A program made the position numbers and the translations under genes. Of a stretch of 64,000 bases of DNA, positions 7,938 through 41,534 are shown piece after piece. Origin of the DNA: Pseudomonadota bacterium. Its GTDB lineage: Bacteria > Pseudomonadota > Gammaproteobacteria > Steroidobacterales > Steroidobacteraceae. The stretch lies in NCBI GenBank assembly GCA_021779535.1, contig JAJYAM010000001.1, forward strand, positions 12,595 to 76,594. The letters run 5' to 3'. Under the pieces are notes generated by a model. The model had not been told where the DNA came from, did not search any database, and worked only from the letters and a program-made list of their open reading frames with translations. The stretch's first letter is position 1. Every line of letters begins with the position of its first letter.

Positions 7938-13931
<5,994 letters not shown>

Positions 13932-24211: not shown

Positions 24212-24610
24212 TCAATTCACGGCGAGATCGGAAGGAGCCGCCGGCAGCAAGGTTCCGACCGGCGCGACACTCGGCGCGGGCGCGGGCGTCGGCGCGGCGG
24301 GCGGTGCCGCACTCGCAGCCGGTGCCGGCTTGGGTCGCGCGATCACGTTCCGGCGCTTCACCGCCCGCTGTGCGGTCTTTTTCGGCACGGCCGCTTTCTT
24401 GACGGCCTTTCGGGCGAGCTTCTTCGCGGCGGGACGGGCGGCCTTCTTGGCGACCTTGCGCGCGACTTTTCGCACGGTCTTGCGCGCGACCTTGCGTACG
24501 GTCTTGCGTACGGTCTTGCGCGCGGTCTTGCGCGCGGTTCGCCGCACGGTCCGCTTCGCGCGCTTCGCGACGTTCCTTCCCTGCTTTTTCGTCTTCGATT
24601 TCTTAGCCAT
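24212..24610 (-). CDS. histone H1-like / AlgP-type Lys-Arg-Ala-rich basic repeat protein
   Basis: 132 aa from MAKKSKTKKQ. Tandem (A/V)RK(T/V) tetrapeptides followed by a Pro/Ala tail. Confidence 0.7.
   Translation of the reverse strand: MAKKSKTKKQGRNVAKRAKRTVRRTARKTARKTVRKTVRKVARKTVRKVARKVAKKAARPAAKKLARKAVKKAAVPKKTAQRAVKRRNVIARPKPAPAASAAPPAAPTPAPAPSVAPVGTLLPAAPSDLAVN
24443..24538. repeat. 12-nt-periodic tandem coding repeat (cggtcttgcgcg-like units)
   Basis: About 8 imperfect units encode ARKT/VRKT/VRKV/ARKV inside the H1-like gene. Confidence 0.7.
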
Positions 24611-24783
24611 GTTCAAACGTCTCCTCGCGGGTCGAGTCAACACGAGCTGGGCCACGGTACGCGTCGCAGAGTAGCCCCGGAGCGCATCGCTTGTCATCTG
24701 GTTCCAACGCCCGCGCGGTGGTGATAAATACTGCTCGCGACCGACCGGCGCGAAGCGCCGCCTGAACCCCGGGAGGGTTGAAC

Positions 24784-26065: not shown

Positions 26066-26104
26066 GATGCATTTTTATGCAGCATGGCTGCGAATTTATG
26101 CACG
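26066..26104 (+). promoter_or_regulatory. tandem ARG boxes (ArgR operator)
   Basis: Two 18-mers spaced 21 bp start to start: gaTGCATttttATGCAgc (26066-26083) and gcTGCGAatttATGCAcg (26087-26104). Each is an imperfect palindrome of the TGnAT-W4-ATnCA type, and they lie immediately upstream of argR. Confidence 0.7.
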
Positions 26105-26114
26105 CCCCGACCCC

Positions 26115-26576
26115 ATGCTCCGCCCGATGACCGATTCGACCGACACGTCCGCGCGGCGCAGTCTGCTCGCGAAGATCCTGCGCGAGCGCACGATCGAGCG
26201 TCAGGCCGAGCTCGTCGAGGTCCTGCGCAAGCGCGGGCATCGCGCGACCCAGTCGAGCGTGAGCCGGGACTTGCGCGAACTCGGCGTCGCGAAACTCGGC
26301 CGCCGCTACGTGCTCACCGACGAGGCGGCCCGCTCGATCGGCGACTTCTCGGCGCTGCGCCCGTTCGTGACCTCCCGGGTCACCGCGGGCGCGAACCTCA
26401 CGGTGCTGAAGACGAAGATCGGCACGGCGCAGAGCGTCGCGGTCGCGATCGACGCGGCCGCGTGGCCGGAGGTCGTCGGCACCCTGTCCGGCGACGACAC
26501 GATATTCATCGCCACCCGCGGCGCGCGCGAGCAGCGCTGCCTCTGCGAACGCCTGCTCGCGATCTTCGGTCGGTAG
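26115..26576 (+). CDS. argR: arginine repressor ArgR
   Basis: Winged-helix N-terminus (LLAKILRERTIERQAELVEVLRKRGHRATQSSVSRDLRELG) and C-terminal oligomerisation domain (TLSGDDTIFI). The start may be 26115 or 26127. Confidence 0.85.
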   Translation: MLRPMTDSTDTSARRSLLAKILRERTIERQAELVEVLRKRGHRATQSSVSRDLRELGVAKLGRRYVLTDEAARSIGDFSALRPFVTSRVTAGANLTVLKTKIGTAQSVAVAIDAAAWPEVVGTLSGDDTIFIATRGAREQRCLCERLLAIFGR

Positions 26577-26584
26577 GGAAACCC

Positions 26585-27811
26585 ATGACAGCGAACGCCT
26601 CGACGGGCACCGGGCCCATCCTTCTCGCGTTTTCCGGCGGACTCGACACCTCGTTCCTCGTGCCCTGGCTCACCGAGACCTACGGCCGGCCGGTGATCAC
26701 GGTCACCGTCGACACCGGCGGGATCGACGCCGAAGCGGCACGCCGGCTCGCGGACCGGGCCGGGGCGCTTGGCGCGATCGATCACCGGCTGGTCGACGCG
26801 CGCACCGGCTACTTCGAGCAGGTGCTGAAGTACCTGATCATGGGGAACGTCCGGCGCGGACAGCTCTATCCCCTGTGCGTCGGCGCCGAACGCGTGCTGC
26901 AGGCGCAGACCATCGCGCAACTCGCGGTCGCGATGAACACCCGGTCGGTCGCGCACGGCTGCACGGCCGCCGGCAACGATCAGGTGCGCTTCGAGGTCGC
27001 GCTGCGCACGCTCGCGCCGGACCTGGAGATCATCGCGCCGGTCCGCGACCGCGCGTTCAAGCGGCCCGAGCAGCTCAAGTATCTCGAGGAACGCCGGCTG
27101 CCGATTCCGCCGTTCGGCGCCGCGTATTCGGTGAATCGAGGACTCTGGGGCGTGACGATCGGCGGCAAGGAGACGCTGACCTCGGCGGGCTCGATTCCGG
27201 AGTCGGCCTGGGTCCTGTCGAAGGACGCGTTCTCGAGCCCGCGCGCGAGCGCCCGCCACGTGATCGGCTTCGAACGCGGCGTGCCGGTCTCGCTGGACCA
27301 CGAACGGCTGACGCCGGTCGCGGTGATCGAGCGCCTCGAGACGCTCGCGGGCCCGTACGGGATCGGCCGCGGGATCCACCTCGGCGACACCGTGATCGGG
27401 ACGAAGGGCCGGGTCGCGTTCGAGGCACCGGCGGCGGAGGTGCTGCTGACCGCGCATCGCGAGCTCGAAAAGCTGGTGCTGACCGCGAAGCAGGCGCGGA
27501 TCAAGGAAATGCTCGCGCAGCCCTACGGCGACCTGGTCCACGAGGGCCAGCACCTCGACCCCGCGTGCCGCGACATCGAGGCGCTGCTCGAGTCCTCGCA
27601 GTCGCGCGTGACCGGAGAGGTCACCGTGCTGTTGCGTCCCGGCTCGGCGTTCGTCGAGGGCGTCGTGTCCGATTTCTCGCTGATGGCGGCCTCGAAGGGC
27701 GTCTACGGCGAGTCCGCCGGCGAATGGACGCCGGCCGACGCGCTCGGCTATTCGAAGATCCTCGCGTTGCCCGGGATCTTCTACCAGCGAGCCGGGGGCT
27801 GCGCGCGATGA
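26585..27811 (+). CDS. argG: argininosuccinate synthase
   Basis: 408 aa. AFSGGLDTS, HGCTAAGNDQVRFE. Confidence 0.9.
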   Translation: MTANASTGTGPILLAFSGGLDTSFLVPWLTETYGRPVITVTVDTGGIDAEAARRLADRAGALGAIDHRLVDARTGYFEQVLKYLIMGNVRRGQLYPLCVGAERVLQAQTIAQLAVAMNTRSVAHGCTAAGNDQVRFEVALRTLAPDLEIIAPVRDRAFKRPEQLKYLEERRLPIPPFGAAYSVNRGLWGVTIGGKETLTSAGSIPESAWVLSKDAFSSPRASARHVIGFERGVPVSLDHERLTPVAVIERLETLAGPYGIGRGIHLGDTVIGTKGRVAFEAPAAEVLLTAHRELEKLVLTAKQARIKEMLAQPYGDLVHEGQHLDPACRDIEALLESSQSRVTGEVTVLLRPGSAFVEGVVSDFSLMAASKGVYGESAGEWTPADALGYSKILALPGIFYQRAGGCAR

Positions 27812-28896
27812 GCGGCATGCGCACGGTGCTCGTCGACAAGCTCGCGTCGGTCACGCAGGCTTGCGGTTTGTCGCACGAAGTCCGGATCTCCCCGGACATC
27901 GCCTGCGAGGAGGGCAACCTCGTCGTCGTCGAGGTCTTGAACGACAAGTCGACCTACAACACGCTCGAGCTGACGAGCGGACGGATGGCGAAGGTGTCGC
28001 GCGGGGACATCGTGGTCGGCGCGCTCGGCCACCGCCGGGCGCTGTTCGGGTATTCCGGCCACATTCCGCCGAGCCTCGCGCCGGGGGACGTGATCCAGAT
28101 GCTCAACATCGGCGGCGTGCTCGGCATCTGCGACTCGGCGACGCCGGACAAGGGCAAGCCCTTCGACTGTCGGGTGCTCGGCGCCGTGCTGACGTTCCCG
28201 TATCTCGGCGAGCGAATCGGAATCCCTGCGAAAGCGGGTTACCAGCGCCTCGATCAGGCCGCGCCGCTCGACGCGCGCGGCGTGCCGGTCGTCGCGCTCG
28301 CGGGCACGTGCATGGAGGCCGGCAAGACCGCGGCCGCGGCGGCGATCATCGCGAGGATGCGGCACCGGGGCCTGGTCGTGGACGCGTTCAAGGCGACCGG
28401 CGTGTCGCTGCGCAGGGACATCCTCGCGTTCGAGGACGCGGGTGCCCGGCGCACGATGATCTTCACCGATCTCGGGGTCGTCACGACGACCGAGAAGAAC
28501 GGACCGGCGTTGACCCGCACGATGCTGACCGAAATGGCCTCGGGGACCCCGGATGCGATCGTGTTCGAGCTCGGTGACGGCCTGCTCGGCGCGTACGGCG
28601 TCGAAGCGATCCTGCAGGACGCGGCGATCAAGCAGGCGCTGACCGCGGTCGTGCTTTCCGCGAACGATCCGGTCGCCGCGTGGGGCGGGGTGAAGCTGCT
28701 GCGCGAGCATTTCGCGATCGAGCCCTGCGTCGTGACCGGCCCCGCGACCGACAACCAGGTCGGCGTGCAGATCATCCGCGACCGGATGGGCCTCGCGGCG
28801 TTCAACGCGATCAGCAATCCGGGCGCGCTCGGCGACCACATCCTCTCCGGACTCCGGATCCCGCGCCTCGCCGAGGCGCGGGTCGCCGCCGAATGA
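27808..28896 (+). CDS. uncharacterised two-domain protein with a DTBS/CobQ/DUF1611-like P-loop, embedded in the arg operon
   Basis: 362 aa. ATGA overlaps with the argG stop (27808-27811) and the argC start (28893-28896). P-loop-like VVALAGTCMEAGKTAAAAAII at about residue 170, and a Walker-B-like AIVFELGDGLLG. Confidence 0.8.
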   Translation: MSGMRTVLVDKLASVTQACGLSHEVRISPDIACEEGNLVVVEVLNDKSTYNTLELTSGRMAKVSRGDIVVGALGHRRALFGYSGHIPPSLAPGDVIQMLNIGGVLGICDSATPDKGKPFDCRVLGAVLTFPYLGERIGIPAKAGYQRLDQAAPLDARGVPVVALAGTCMEAGKTAAAAAIIARMRHRGLVVDAFKATGVSLRRDILAFEDAGARRTMIFTDLGVVTTTEKNGPALTRTMLTEMASGTPDAIVFELGDGLLGAYGVEAILQDAAIKQALTAVVLSANDPVAAWGGVKLLREHFAIEPCVVTGPATDNQVGVQIIRDRMGLAAFNAISNPGALGDHILSGLRIPRLAEARVAAE

Positions 28897-29954
28897 GCGC
28901 GCGAACCCCGGCGTACGTGCTCGGCGGCACCGGTTATGTCGCCGGAGAGGTCCTGCGGTTGATCGCCGGGCATCCGCAGCTCGAACTCGGCGGCATCCTG
29001 TCGGAGAGCCACTCCGCCGCGCCGATCGGCGAAGCGTTCCCGCACCTGCTCGGCGCCTACGGCGACCGGCGGTTCGCGGGGATCGACGAGATCGACGCCG
29101 CGATCCGCGCCGCGTCCGCGGCCGCGCTGTTCTCGGCGGCCCCGCACGGCGCGGCGGCGGCGACGATCGACCGGCTGCTGTCGGCGGCGGAGGCGGCCGG
29201 CACGCGGATCCACTGCGTCGACATCTCGGCGGACTTCCGGTACCGCAGCGCCGCCGCGTACGGCGCGGTCTACGGCCACGCGCACGCCGCGCCGGCACGC
29301 ATCGCGGAGTTCACCTGCGCGCTGCCCGAGCATCTCGGCACCGCGCCGACGCCGCACATCGCCCACCCCGGCTGCTTCGCATCCGCGATCCTGCTCGCGA
29401 TCGTCCCGCTCCTCGCCGCCGATCTGGTCGAGCCCGTCCTGTTCGCGAGCGGCGTCACGGGCAGCACCGGCTCCGGACGCAAGCCGGTCGACGGGACGCA
29501 CCATCCGCGCCGTCACGGCGATCTGTACGCGTACAACCCGCTCACCCACCGTCACGTGCCGGAGATCCTCGCGTGCGCCGAGGCCGCGACCGGCGTCGCG
29601 GCGGAATTGCATTTCGTCCCGCACTCGGGACCGTTCGCGCGCGGGATCCACGTGACGGTGCAGGCGCGGCTGCGCCGGCCGAGCAGCGGTGCGAGCGTGC
29701 GCGAGGCGATCGCGGCGTACTACGCCGGCCAGCCGTTCGTCCAGGTCGTGGGCGGGCCGCCGCGCATCAAGGACGTCGTCGCGAGCAACTACGCGCATCT
29801 CGGCGTCGCCGCCGACGGCGCGACGGTCGCCGTGATGTCGGTGCTCGACAACCTGACGAAGGGGGCGGCCGGCGGCGCGATGCAGTGGATGAACCGATTG
29901 TTCGGGTTCGAGGAGGCCGCCGGACTCACGGCCCCCGCGCCCGGCTGGACTTGA
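28893..29954 (+). CDS. argC: N-acetyl-gamma-glutamyl-phosphate reductase
   Basis: 353 aa. GGTGYVAGEVLRL, active-site HPGCFASA, LDNLTKGAAG. Confidence 0.9.
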   Translation: MSARTPAYVLGGTGYVAGEVLRLIAGHPQLELGGILSESHSAAPIGEAFPHLLGAYGDRRFAGIDEIDAAIRAASAAALFSAAPHGAAAATIDRLLSAAEAAGTRIHCVDISADFRYRSAAAYGAVYGHAHAAPARIAEFTCALPEHLGTAPTPHIAHPGCFASAILLAIVPLLAADLVEPVLFASGVTGSTGSGRKPVDGTHHPRRHGDLYAYNPLTHRHVPEILACAEAATGVAAELHFVPHSGPFARGIHVTVQARLRRPSSGASVREAIAAYYAGQPFVQVVGGPPRIKDVVASNYAHLGVAADGATVAVMSVLDNLTKGAAGGAMQWMNRLFGFEEAAGLTAPAPGWT

Positions 29955-29963
29955 GGCCGACCG

Positions 29964-31133
29964 ATGGCGACCGCGACGAATTCCTCGACCGACACGCCCG
30001 CGAGCCACCTGGCCCGCGTGTTCGCCCAGTACCCGATCGACGTCGTGAGAGGCGACGGCGTTTGGATCCTGGCACGCGATGGACGCAAATTCCTCGACTT
30101 CTACGGCGGCCACGCGGTCGCGGGCTTGGGCTACGGTCATCCGCGCTGGCTCGCCGCGCTCGAACGCCAGGCACGGCAGATCGCGTTCCAGACGAACGCG
30201 CTGCCGATTGCGATACGCGAGCGGGCGGCCGCGAAACTCGCGAAATTCACCGGTCTTGGCCTCGACACCGTGTTCTGGGTCAACAGCGGCGCGGAAGCGA
30301 ACGAGAACGCGCTGCGAATGGCGTTCAAGATCACCGGCCGCACCAAGGCGGTCGCGCTCGAGCACGGCTGGCACGGCCGGACCGCGGCCGCCGGCGCGGT
30401 CACCTGGGGCGCGATCGAGAAGTGGTACGCGTTCCCGCGCCGCCCGTTCGACGTCGCGTTCGCCCCGCGCGCCGACCCGGCCGCGATCGACTCGATCGTC
30501 GACCGGGACACCGCGGCGGTGATCGTCGAGCCCGTTCAAGGCGTCGGCGGCGCCTACGACCTGGGCAAGCCGATGCTCGAGGCCCTGCGCCGGCGCTGCG
30601 ACGAGACCGGCGCGCTGCTGATCTTCGACGAAGTGCAATGCGGAATGGGGCGCACCGGGAGCGCGTTCGCCGCGAATCACTACGGCATCGCGCCGGACAT
30701 GCTGACCTCGGCGAAGGCGCTCGGCAACGGCTTTCCGGTCGCGGCGCTGCTGATGTCGCGACGGGTCGCGCGACAGGTCCAGACCGACGACATGGGCACG
30801 ACGTTCGGCGGAGGCCCGATGGCCTGCGCGGTCGCCGAAGCGGTGATCGATGCGATCGAGTCGGAATCGCTGCTCGCGAACGTGCGCACCGTATCGGCGT
30901 ACCTGCGCGCCCATTGCCGCGTCGGCCCGGTGACCGGTGTCCAAGGTCTCGGCTTCCTGCTCGGCTTGCGGACCAGCCGGCCGGCCAAGGAGGTACAGGC
31001 CGCGCTGATCGACAAGCAGATCCTGGCGGGCACGAGCGGCGATCCGCACGTGCTGCGGCTGCTGCCCGCGTACATCCTGACCGAAGGACACGTCGATCGG
31101 CTGTGCGAAGCGCTCGCGCAGATCAGCCCATGA
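29964..31133 (+). CDS. argD: acetylornithine aminotransferase (class-III PLP aminotransferase)
   Basis: 389 aa. NSGAEANE, LIFDEVQCGMGRTG, TSAKALGNG. Confidence 0.9.
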   Translation: MATATNSSTDTPASHLARVFAQYPIDVVRGDGVWILARDGRKFLDFYGGHAVAGLGYGHPRWLAALERQARQIAFQTNALPIAIRERAAAKLAKFTGLGLDTVFWVNSGAEANENALRMAFKITGRTKAVALEHGWHGRTAAAGAVTWGAIEKWYAFPRRPFDVAFAPRADPAAIDSIVDRDTAAVIVEPVQGVGGAYDLGKPMLEALRRRCDETGALLIFDEVQCGMGRTGSAFAANHYGIAPDMLTSAKALGNGFPVAALLMSRRVARQVQTDDMGTTFGGGPMACAVAEAVIDAIESESLLANVRTVSAYLRAHCRVGPVTGVQGLGFLLGLRTSRPAKEVQAALIDKQILAGTSGDPHVLRLLPAYILTEGHVDRLCEALAQISP

Positions 31134-32125
31134 GACGCTTCCTCGACCTCGCCGATTTCACCCGCGAAGAGATCCTCGATCTGCTCGCGCTCGCGCAGTC
31201 CTTGCAGGATGCGCCGCAGCCGCGCGCGCTCGCCGGCAAGACACTCGGCCTGCTGTTCTTCAATCCGAGCTTGCGGACGCTGGCGTCGTTCCAGGCGGGC
31301 ATGGCCCGCCTCGGCGGCAGCTCGTTCGTGATCACGCCGGGACAGGGAACCTGGCAGCTCGAGACGCGGATGAACGCGGTGATGAACGGCGGCGCGGCCG
31401 AGCACATCCGAGAGGCGATTCCCGTGCTCGCGTCCTACTGCGATGCGCTCGGCGTGCGCGCGTTCGCCGAGGGCCGCAACCTCGATCTCGACCTCGGCGA
31501 GTCGCTGTTCCGCACGATCGATGCGCTGTGCGAGAAACCGCTCGTGAACCTCGAGTCCGCCGTCAATCACCCCTGCCAGGCGCTCGCCGACTGGCGAACG
31601 CTCGACGAGATCGGCGTGCCGCGCCGCGGAAAATTCGTGCTCAGCTGGGTCTACCACCCGCGGCCCCTGCCGCTCGCGGTCCCGGCCGCGACGCTGCACA
31701 TGGCGGCGCTGCGCGGGATGGAGGTCGTGGTGCTGCGTCCGCCGGGATTCGCGCTGCCGCCGGCCATCATGGAGAAGGCGCACCGCGCGGCCGCGGCGTC
31801 CGGCGGCAGCGTCTCGGAGACGGACGACCGGGCCGCCGCGCTCACCGGCGCCCAAGTGCTCTATGCGAAGGAATGGGGCACGACGACCTATTACGGGGAC
31901 GTCGAGGCCGATTCGCGGTTGCGCGCCGAGCTCGGGCAATGGTGCGTGCGCGAACGCTGGTTCGATGGCGCGGCCCCGGACGCGAAACTGATGCACTGCC
32001 TGCCGGTGCGTCGCAACGTCGCCGTCGCCGACGAGGTGCTGGACGGCCCACGGGCCGTCGTCAAGCGCGAAGCATTCAACCGTCTCGTGGTGCAGATGGC
32101 CGTGCTGCACCGCTTGCTCGCCTGA
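31130..32125 (+). CDS. N-acyl-L-ornithine carbamoyltransferase (ArgF', probably the N-acetylornithine type)
   Basis: 331 aa. FFNPSLRTLASF replaces the OTCase STRTR motif. HPCQALAD and HCLPVRRN are present. ATGA overlap with the argD stop. Confidence 0.8.
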   Translation: MRRFLDLADFTREEILDLLALAQSLQDAPQPRALAGKTLGLLFFNPSLRTLASFQAGMARLGGSSFVITPGQGTWQLETRMNAVMNGGAAEHIREAIPVLASYCDALGVRAFAEGRNLDLDLGESLFRTIDALCEKPLVNLESAVNHPCQALADWRTLDEIGVPRRGKFVLSWVYHPRPLPLAVPAATLHMAALRGMEVVVLRPPGFALPPAIMEKAHRAAAASGGSVSETDDRAAALTGAQVLYAKEWGTTTYYGDVEADSRLRAELGQWCVRERWFDGAAPDAKLMHCLPVRRNVAVADEVLDGPRAVVKREAFNRLVVQMAVLHRLLA

Positions 32126-32160: not shown

Positions 32161-33108
32161 ATGATCAGCAGTCGACCGGATCCATCCATCGCCGTCCGCG
32201 CGCTGAAAAGCGCGACGCCGTACATTCGCATGTACAAAGGCAAGGTATTCGTGATCAAGGCGGGCGGCGCCGTCTTCAGCGATCGGGAGTCGACCCGCGC
32301 GCTGATCGAGCAGGTGGCCATCCTGCACCAGGTGGGCATCCGCACCGTGCTCGTGCACGGCGGCGGGCCGCAGCTCGACAGCATACAGGCGGCGCTCGGG
32401 GTCGAGACGCGCATGGTCGGCGGCAGGCGCGTGACGGACCAGAATTCGATCGAAGCGATCGCGATGGTGCTGAACGGGCTGATCAACACCCGGATCCTCG
32501 CGACCTGCCGGGAACTCGCGATCGAGGCGATCGGCCTGAGCGGCGTCGACGCGGGCCTGATCCGCGCTCACAAGCGCCCCCCCGTGCGCTCGCCGGACGC
32601 CGGCGGCGACCCGGTCGACTACGGCTTCGTCGGCGACATCGACACGGTCGACACCGCGGCGCTCGTGAAGCTCCTCGATGACGGCCTGATGCCGGTCGTG
32701 AGCCCGCTGTCCGCGGACGATCGAGGCACGCTCCTCAACGTCAACGCCGATACGGTCGCGGCGGCGATCGGCGCGAGTCTCGCCGCCGAGAAGCTCGTGC
32801 TGTGCACCGGCGCACCGGGGATCCTCGAGCGCCGGGACGATCCGAGATCGCTGGTCTCGTATACCGACCTCAAGGGATTGAAGCGGCTTCACGACCAAGG
32901 CAGTCTCGCCGACGGGATGCTGCCGAAGGCGGCCGCGATCGAGAACGCGATCCGCGGCGGCGTGCGCCGGGTGCACGTGATCACCTACAAGTCTCCCGAC
33001 AGCCTGCTCGCGGAAGTGTTCACGAACGAAGGGACCGGCACGCTCGTGGTGGCCGACCTGAACGCGCTGACGCCGGCCGAGCAGCAGGGCGCGGCCCGCC
33101 ACCCATGA
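32161..33108 (+). CDS. argB: acetylglutamate kinase (monofunctional, no GNAT extension)
   Basis: 315 aa. FVIKAGGA, LVHGGGPQ, NVNADTVA. Confidence 0.9.
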   Translation: MISSRPDPSIAVRALKSATPYIRMYKGKVFVIKAGGAVFSDRESTRALIEQVAILHQVGIRTVLVHGGGPQLDSIQAALGVETRMVGGRRVTDQNSIEAIAMVLNGLINTRILATCRELAIEAIGLSGVDAGLIRAHKRPPVRSPDAGGDPVDYGFVGDIDTVDTAALVKLLDDGLMPVVSPLSADDRGTLLNVNADTVAAAIGASLAAEKLVLCTGAPGILERRDDPRSLVSYTDLKGLKRLHDQGSLADGMLPKAAAIENAIRGGVRRVHVITYKSPDSLLAEVFTNEGTGTLVVADLNALTPAEQQGAARHP

Positions 33109-34295
33109 GCCGCCTCTGGGACAAGGGGAAGCCGCTCGACGCGAAGGTGCTCGCGTACACCGCGGGCGACGATCACGCGCTCGACGACCGCCTGGTGCGC
33201 TACGACGTCGAGGCGTCGATCGCGCATGCCGAGATGCTCGCCGCGCAGGGGCTGCTCGACGCGGCGGACCTGGCGGCGATCCGCGAAGCCCTGCTCCAGA
33301 TCGGCGCCGAGCATGCGCGCGGCGAATGGCGCGTCGCGCTCGAGGAAGAGGACGGCCAGACGGCGATCGAGATCCGCCTGACCGCGCGGATCGGGGCGAC
33401 CGGCGGCCGCATCCACGCGGGCCGATCCCGCAACGACCAGGTGCTCGCGGCCTTGCGGCTCTACCTGCGAGACGCGGCCGATGGACTGCGCGAAGGCGCC
33501 CTTGCGGTCGCGGATGCGCTGTCGCAACTCGCGGCGCGTCAGGGCTCGGTGCGGCTGCCCGGCTACACGCACATGCAGCAGGCGATGCCGAGCAGCGTCG
33601 GTCTCTGGGCCGAGGGCTTCGCGGCCGAGATTCGCGACGACGCGCAAGGGCTGCGCGAGACCGCGCGCCGGGCCGGCAAGAACCCGCTGGGCTCGGCGGC
33701 CGGCTACGGCACGCCGAACCTGCCGATCGACCGTGAGGCGACGCGCCGGCGCCTCGGGTTCGGCGAGATCCACACGCCGGTGACCGCGGTGCAGCTCTCG
33801 CGGGGCAAGGCCGAGGCCCAATTGCTCTTCGAGATCACCCTGCTGGCGCAGGACCTCGGCCGGCTCGCGGCGGACTTGCTGCTCTTCTACACGCAGGAGT
33901 TCGGGTTCGTGAGCCTGCCGGAGGAATTCACGACCGGCTCGTCGATCATGCCGCAGAAGCGCAACCCCGACGTGTTCGAGCTCGTCCGCGGACGCGGCGC
34001 GGTCGCGCACGCGGCGCTCGACGAGGTGCTGCGAATCACCGAGAAGCTGGGTTCCGGTTATCACCGCGACCTGCAGCTGATCAAGCCGCCGTTGTTCCGC
34101 GCGATCGACTCCTGCGCACGGACGCTCGACATCTTGCCGAGCGCGCTCGCCGGCGTGCGGTTCCATCCCGAGCGCATCCGGCTGGACCCGACGATCGACG
34201 CGGCCGCCCGGGCGAACGCCCTGGTCGTCGCCGAGGGGATCCCGTTTCGCGAAGCGTACCGGCGGATCGCGGCCGAGTTGCGCGAAGAACGCTAG
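33105..34295 (+). CDS. argH: argininosuccinate lyase (short, 396 aa)
   Basis: GRSRNDQV and the signature GSSIMPQKRNPD. ATGA overlap with the argB stop. Confidence 0.9.
   Translation: MSRLWDKGKPLDAKVLAYTAGDDHALDDRLVRYDVEASIAHAEMLAAQGLLDAADLAAIREALLQIGAEHARGEWRVALEEEDGQTAIEIRLTARIGATGGRIHAGRSRNDQVLAALRLYLRDAADGLREGALAVADALSQLAARQGSVRLPGYTHMQQAMPSSVGLWAEGFAAEIRDDAQGLRETARRAGKNPLGSAAGYGTPNLPIDREATRRRLGFGEIHTPVTAVQLSRGKAEAQLLFEITLLAQDLGRLAADLLLFYTQEFGFVSLPEEFTTGSSIMPQKRNPDVFELVRGRGAVAHAALDEVLRITEKLGSGYHRDLQLIKPPLFRAIDSCARTLDILPSALAGVRFHPERIRLDPTIDAAARANALVVAEGIPFREAYRRIAAELREER

Positions 34296-40842: not shown

Positions 40843-41534
<692 letters not shown>

Follow-up and report, generated by a model that had tools for sequence, protein, structure and literature searches.

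The DNA analysed here, hereafter the window, is a stretch of 64,000 nucleotides from contig JAJYAM010000001.1 of a Steroidobacteraceae genome (assembly GCA_021779535.1), and its arginine operon carries, between argG and argC, a gene for a conserved hypothetical protein that we call X. As the initial annotation of this DNA had noted, the 362-amino-acid open reading frame (ORF) is joined to both neighbors by ATGA overlaps, and its coordinates are confirmed here: the ATG of X shares 27808-27811 with the argG stop, and its own stop shares 28893-28896 with the ATG of argC. NCBIfam searches yielded the gene order argR-argG-X-argC-argD-argF'-argB-argH, in agreement with the operon content and the monofunctional ArgB of 315 amino acids described in that annotation, and the operon genes were called in the same way on identical metagenome contigs. 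The features of the operon are the following:

26068-26081 and 26089-26102, plus strand: two ARG-box-like palindromes, TGCATTTTTATGCA and TGCGAATTTATGCA respectively, with starts 21 bp apart, immediately upstream of argR
26115-26576, plus strand: argR, arginine repressor (NCBIfam TIGR01529, E-value 3e-30; gene call in the identical contig L001)
26585-27811, plus strand: argG, argininosuccinate synthase (NCBIfam; gene call in L001)
27808-28896, plus strand: gene X, two-domain conserved hypothetical protein of 362 amino acids (ORF with ATGA overlaps, homologues, AlphaFold2 model)
28893-29954, plus strand: argC (TIGR01850, above cut-off)
29964-31133, plus strand: argD, N-acylornithine aminotransferase (NCBIfam)
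31130-32125, plus strand: argF', N-acylornithine carbamoyltransferase (NF003384, above cut-off)
32161-33108, plus strand: argB, N-acylglutamate kinase of 315 amino acids, without a GNAT domain and with intact catalytic motifs (NCBIfam)
33105-34295, plus strand: argH, argininosuccinate lyase, short form of 396 amino acids (NCBIfam; gene call in L001)

The initial annotation had described this operon as lacking argA, argJ and argE, and this holds for the whole window, since tblastn found neither ArgE/M20, nor an ArgA-type GNAT, nor ArgJ anywhere in its 64 kb; the ArgA models of NCBIfam matched the window argB through its kinase domain only. Of 92 related loci, 59 had a similar palindrome upstream of argR; together with the palindromes of the window, this points to an operon that is probably arginine-repressed, X included. 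The position of the palindromes upstream of argR suggests that ArgR may autoregulate the whole operon.

X is a real gene and not a chance ORF of GC-rich DNA, because it has many homologues (more than 6,500), its AlphaFold2 model reaches a predicted local distance difference test score (pLDDT) of 95.3 and a predicted template modelling score (pTM) of 0.92, and its 4-bp overlaps were seen again in distant loci. The closest homologues, 80-100% identical, come from Steroidobacteraceae or from Gammaproteobacteria metagenome-assembled genomes (MAGs) and are all annotated as hypothetical. In an exhaustive search, clustering at 50% identity yielded 1,448 groups, and relatives matching over their full length were found at identities as low as about 30%; the named relatives included Acidobacteriota (Blastocatellia), Planctomycetota and one archaeon-labelled MAG. 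X passed no Pfam or NCBIfam model, the best being MobB (E-value 0.013) and DUF1611_C (0.044), and the same searches found in it no GNAT, ArgJ (PF01960) or Peptidase_M20 domain, the M20 genes described below being separate neighbors. An alignment of 45 family members disclosed 13 invariant residues (G36, P87, G103, G172, K173, K195, G198, G212, G223, E254, G256, D287 and G311) and the conserved motifs GTCMxxGKT, K-x-T-G-V, ELGDGxLGxYGV, CAxDxVGAWG and GPxTDN; residues 250-261 of X itself read AIVFELGDGLLG. An NKxD GTPase motif was not seen in the family consensus, where no dedicated motif search was made. A correspondence between CAxDxVGAWG and the DTFRAAA motif of the SRP GTPases was considered and dismissed (E-value of about 50, motif out of order).

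The gene neighborhood was compared in the best 80 genome loci, which all come from species of the Steroidobacteraceae and hence carry no taxonomic breadth, and in 80 diverse metagenome loci whose X proteins are 42-55% identical to an archaeal-type member of the family. Altogether, some 170 loci, drawn from several phyla, had X within an arg cluster. The full operon was present in 59 of the 80 Steroidobacteraceae genomes, while six of them (L046, L048, L055, L061, L071 and L083) displayed a reduced cluster, (argR-)X-argC-argB, with no argG, argD, argF' or argH in the 10-kb flanks; if X acts first, this mini-cluster would be the first three steps of the pathway. X was in an arg cluster in every one of the 80 metagenome loci, typically as argG-X-argC-argD-argF'-argB(-M20-argH). 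An M20 ArgE-like gene was found in the cluster in 21 of them, so that the deacylase step is already filled beside X, which argues against X as the deacylase. The Steroidobacteraceae operons contained no M20 ArgE gene, and neither they nor their 10-kb flanks contained an ArgA candidate. The 80 metagenome loci yielded no GNAT, and neither did the 10 candidates checked with Pfam upstream of argG in 10 loci; the stop-to-stop ORF scan used there was noisy in GC-rich DNA.

A single ORF of 673 amino acids that joins X to an amino-acid-kinase domain of the ArgB/ArgA type was found on four contigs from four samples, and mirrors the architecture of classical ArgA. The fused kinase domain has K-I-A-D for K-x-G-G and AVASD for NVNAD, and might, like that of classical ArgA, have no catalytic activity. 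The same domain is known in fusion with GNAT (classical ArgA) and with ArgJ, both of which make N-acetylglutamate. The X-kinase gene (L004, 9860-11881; also L005-L007) stands outside any arg operon, divergent from an arginase-family gene, and its first 47 residues were cut off by the gene caller. Two ArgJ (PF01960) fusions to an ArgB-like kinase, of about 700 amino acids (P0288 and P0289), were retrieved through the kinase part of the query only. Two apparent X-ArgC fusions were rejected as artefacts: P0171 contains many out-of-frame stretches, and P0284 comes from a 4x long-read contig in which a single indel within the ATGA overlap would be enough to put both genes in one frame. Similar assembly errors were observed in L094.

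As for the acyl group, the best match of the window ArgF' in the PDB was 3L02, the E92A mutant of the Xanthomonas N-acetylornithine transcarbamylase, and Ala90 of the window protein is the equivalent of Glu92 in that enzyme. Across 107 X-linked clusters, this position was occupied by A (77), V (19), T (6), Q (2) and I, S or P (one each), and in none of the 107 by Glu. According to Shi et al. 2007, as cited in the GapMind 2026 preprint, such a residue goes with specificity for N-succinylornithine. Since all 107 sequences are non-Glu, we take the pathway to be of the succinyl type, and the acyl group is probably succinyl and not acetyl. The N-acetylglutamate synthase considered in the initial annotation is at variance with this succinyl-type signature.

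The structure of X was examined in its AlphaFold2 model. The P-loop and the Walker-B-like motif that the initial annotation had pointed out were found at residues 166-174 and 250-261, within the second of two domains:

27808-28281, plus strand: N-terminal domain of X, residues 1 to about 158, all-beta (DSSP on models)
28282-28893, plus strand: C-terminal domain of X, residues about 159-362, an alpha/beta P-loop domain of the SIMIBI/BioD-like type (Foldseek, profile search, hhalign)
28303-28329, plus strand: extended Walker A loop GTCMEAGKT, G166-T174, with BioD-type spacing G-x5-GKT (sequence)
28390-28392, plus strand: invariant Lys195 in the motif K-x-T-G, equivalent of BioD Lys37 (alignment)
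28567-28581, plus strand: Walker-B-like E254-L-G-D-G258, with E254 aligned to BioD Glu115 (alignment)

Modelled alone, the N-terminal domain kept a pLDDT of 93.7; its family-conserved residues are S14, G36, E54, G74, R76, P87 and G103, and Foldseek found no structural relative of it in the PDB (best E-value of about 1, TM-score of 0.43 or less). Only the C-terminal domain was matched there, by SRP54/FtsY, BioD and HypB (E-values from 8e-6 to 2e-4 over about 215-235 columns, with the BioD-type matches at about 1e-5). The sequence of X by itself retrieved nothing from the PDB, while a profile of the family reached BioD at 1.5e-4. Alignment of profiles with hhalign placed X against E. coli BioD with a probability of 75.5% and an E-value of 2.4e-5 over 102 columns, pairing G166-T174 with BioD G8-T16, K195 with Lys37 and E254 with Glu115. 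The two proteins thus share a G-x5-GK[TS] loop, a Lys 22 residues past the P-loop Lys, and a Glu in hhhE-G-x-G, in an alignment that spans some 100-230 residues at 12-18% identity; in the family, G172 and K173 of the loop are invariant and T174 is conserved in at least 90% of the members. X differs from BioD in its extra beta domain of 158 residues, in having Met169 for BioD Thr11, and in its pathway. The BioD family model was not among the NCBIfam or Pfam matches of X, and AAA_26 was matched weakly by 7 of the 45 family members. BioD activates a carboxylate or carbamate in an ATP-dependent manner, after which an amine attacks, and the residues of its loop, Lys37 and Glu115 hold the gamma-phosphate of ATP and Mg2+. 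Since the equivalents of Lys37 and Glu115 are kept, an ATP-dependent ligase mechanism is possible for X.

A role for a protein of this kind has already been proposed. The GapMind 2026 preprint predicts that ACG33_RS14135 of Steroidobacter denitrificans, encoded at the same operon position, is an N-acylglutamate synthase. The preprint argues that this bacterium grows in minimal medium with no ArgA or ArgE recognisable in its genome, that the homologues of ACG33_RS14135 are virtually always in arg operons, and that proteins of this type and ArgA homologues never occur in the same genome; a weak Foldseek match to the D-glutamate N-acetyltransferase DgcN and the ArgF' position-92 pattern are its further arguments. 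The window X is almost certainly the orthologue of ACG33_RS14135, as judged from taxon and operon: both belong to the same bacterial family, are hypothetical proteins in an arg cluster with a succinyl-type ArgF', and have no Pfam domain. The hypothesis of the initial annotation was therefore already published, and the credit for the functional prediction belongs to that preprint. The X-kinase fusion, the mini-clusters, the BioD-like residues, the novel N-terminal domain and the co-occurrence of X with a GNAT (see below) go beyond it.

We lean, without great confidence, towards X being a functional replacement of ArgA that makes N-succinyl-L-glutamate. A role in the first step is the most parsimonious one because the other steps have ordinary enzymes, X is linked to argB and argC through the fusion and the mini-clusters, and ArgE candidates co-occur with it. 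The initial annotation had suggested that X fills one of the two gaps of the pathway; context, mini-clusters and fusion speak for the first step, and the co-occurrence with M20 genes speaks against the deacylase. In the mechanism that we infer, X would be co-translated with argG and argC from an operon probably repressed by ArgR, and would form N-succinyl-L-glutamate, after which ArgB, ArgC, ArgD and the succinyl-type ArgF' would process the succinylated intermediates. The beta domain, with its conserved R76 and E54, likely binds glutamate, and the BioD-like P-loop domain likely handles the acyl donor. This donor would be either succinyl-CoA, by analogy with DgcN, or succinate that ATP has converted to an activated acyl phosphate, and the latter is favored because the phosphoryl-transfer residues of BioD (K173/T174, K195 and E254) are kept. 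The full claim that X is an ATP-dependent succinate:L-glutamate ligase acting via succinyl phosphate and not an acyl-CoA transferase, with a beta domain of unseen fold, is a serious alternative that we nevertheless regard as rather unlikely. With respect to the known first enzymes, X would have the same reaction and pathway position as ArgA (kinase plus GNAT), the short N-acetylglutamate synthases that consist of a GNAT only (S-NAGS) and BT3761 of Bacteroides, with no relation to them in sequence or fold; BT3761 is an unrelated GNAT, an N-succinylglutamate synthase encoded next to argG in a succinyl-type arg operon.

Several points weigh against X as the first enzyme. P-loop proteins of the SIMIBI class are often regulators or chaperones, not enzymes. 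In two related archaeal-type loci, L096 and L177, an S-NAGS-like GNAT is encoded in the arg cluster along with X and an M20 gene, upstream of argG in L096 (8193-8666) and between the M20 gene and argH in L177 (14258-14761). These GNATs are 45% identical to each other, and their best matches, all below the family cut-offs, were S-NAGS proteins and the GNAT portion of ArgH-ArgA fusions. X is therefore not needed for the ArgA gap in these loci, and a simple replacement of ArgA is not universal; the GNATs could represent redundancy, an ongoing displacement, or an indication that X plays a different, auxiliary part. In the comparison that the initial annotation had proposed, the linkage of X to arg genes was borne out across phyla, and an ArgA-like GNAT co-occurred with X in L096 and L177. 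Moreover, the kinase domain of the fusion looks degenerate, and the fusion could thus reflect regulation and not a product-substrate relation. Finally, 7XRJ, the structure of DgcN, was not among the 50 best Foldseek matches of X (E-values to 1.8e-4), so that the DgcN link of the GapMind 2026 preprint was not reproduced, and the role of all members of the family is a prediction for which that preprint reports no experiment.

A real but doubtful alternative is that X has some other nucleotide-dependent role, peculiar to arginine operons of this type. It could, for example, be a regulator that responds to arginine or a partner of ArgB/ArgC, it could serve in channelling or assembly, or it could activate the acyl donor; the true ArgA would then be another protein, for instance a GNAT. 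The ArgA-like GNATs in the X operons of L096 and L177 would fit such a role, as would the regulatory GTPases among the nearest structural matches (SRP54/FtsY, HypB and MobB) and the resemblance of the fused kinase, which looks degenerate, to the regulatory domain of classical ArgA. However, every other step has an ordinary enzyme, neither the Steroidobacteraceae operons and 10-kb flanks nor, as the GapMind 2026 preprint reports, the genome of S. denitrificans offered an ArgA candidate, and no GNAT turned up in the 80 metagenome loci or upstream of argG in the 10 loci checked with Pfam. The BioD spacing of the P-loop and the Lys37 equivalent also argue against it, as does NKxD, unseen in the consensus in that undedicated inspection. 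A role in deacylation, by which X would hydrolyse N-succinylcitrulline or, in the manner of ArgJ, pass the succinyl group back to glutamate, is very improbable. It would suit the Steroidobacteraceae operons, which are without an M20 ArgE, and the genome of S. denitrificans, where the GapMind 2026 preprint finds no ArgE either, and an ArgJ-like transfer would fill both gaps together. Yet X is accompanied by an M20 gene of the ArgE/DapE type in L096, L177 and 21 of the 80 metagenome loci, and both the fusion and the mini-clusters place it with argB and argC, which act early. No amidohydrolase or Ntn-type transferase is known to have a BioD-like P-loop fold.

Hardly credible is that X is a divergent DUF1611/DgcN protein, that is, an acetyl-CoA-dependent N-acetyltransferase making N-acetylglutamate, a kinship that the initial annotation had raised. 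X and DgcN/DUF1611 (PF17396 plus PF07755) are similar in length and two-domain layout, with a C-terminal P-loop domain, a GT(D/C)xxxGK loop and an x-A-T-G motif after strand 2, and the substrate of DgcN is also glutamate. Sub-threshold PF07755 matches were obtained for 27 of the 45 family members (best E-value 1.3e-5), and the GapMind 2026 preprint gives a Foldseek match to 7XRJ with an E-value of 1.4e-7 and a root-mean-square deviation of 5.6 Å. Nevertheless, PF07755 scored 13.6 bits on X against a cut-off of 25, over residues 159-198 only (E-value 0.044), PF17396, the Rossmann-like N-terminal domain of DUF1611, did not match X, and CbiA and MobB scored as high as DUF1611_C among the family members. 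For a direct comparison, we used a DUF1611 alignment seeded from gene 017 of phage AD1 and including DgcN; AD1_017 passes PF07755 with 156 bits and also PF17396, and retrieves 7XRJ (E-value 3e-51) as well as 2OBN and 2G0T. Against this alignment, hhalign gave the X family 9.5% (E-value 0.0034) over 44 columns covering the P-loop only, as compared with 75% over 102 columns for BioD. The DUF1611 invariants TGQTG, D..DF..G..E and EGQG and its two conserved histidines had no counterparts among the X-family invariants, and DUF1611 proteins have R, C or L where X has K195, the Lys37 equivalent. The N-terminal domain is all-beta in X and Rossmann-like in DUF1611, 7XRJ fell outside the Foldseek top 50, and the ArgF' residue points to succinyl, not acetyl. 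We conclude that X is not a recognisable member of DUF1611, and that the resemblance is that of a generic BioD-type P-loop core. A motif scan of 2.4 Mb of related loci found no DUF1611 gene. In Dickeya phage AD1, a jumbo phage, the DUF1611 gene AD1_017 (L179, 8016-9071) has a methyltransferase gene on one side and an asparagine-synthase-like gene on the other.

If X does make N-succinyl-L-glutamate, arginine biosynthesis would have, for its first committed step, a family of enzymes with no relation to the GNAT-type ArgA or to ArgJ, and the gap in the pathway would be closed in Steroidobacteraceae, in many Acidobacteriota (Blastocatellia), in Planctomycetota and in some archaeal-type genomes, groups that are abundant soil and sediment microbes. 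Genome-based predictions of auxotrophy would improve, and a large family of Pfam-less hypothetical proteins would gain a function. Were X the ligase, it would represent a third and mechanistically new start of arginine biosynthesis, independent of succinyl-CoA, and N-acylation driven by ATP instead of CoA would be new enzymology.

Some other features of the window were recorded. A minus-strand ORF of 161 amino acids at 24212-24697 is extremely rich in Lys, Arg and Ala, contains ARKTVRK/VARK repeats and is histone-H1-like; in the identical contig L001, where the gene call is 132 amino acids long, it had no Pfam match. ARAGORN placed a tRNA-Cys(GCA) at 11391-11465 (plus strand) and a tRNA-Arg(CCG) at 40844-40920 (minus strand), and Rfam at its gathering threshold reported the tRNA-Arg only. 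The product of argH (33105-34295) covers its model only to position 384 of 455, and contains Lyase_1 and not the ASL_C2 domain. Short ArgH proteins of 400-404 amino acids without ASL_C2 are also encoded in L096 and L177, while those of L010 and L095 are full-length and carry ASL_C2.

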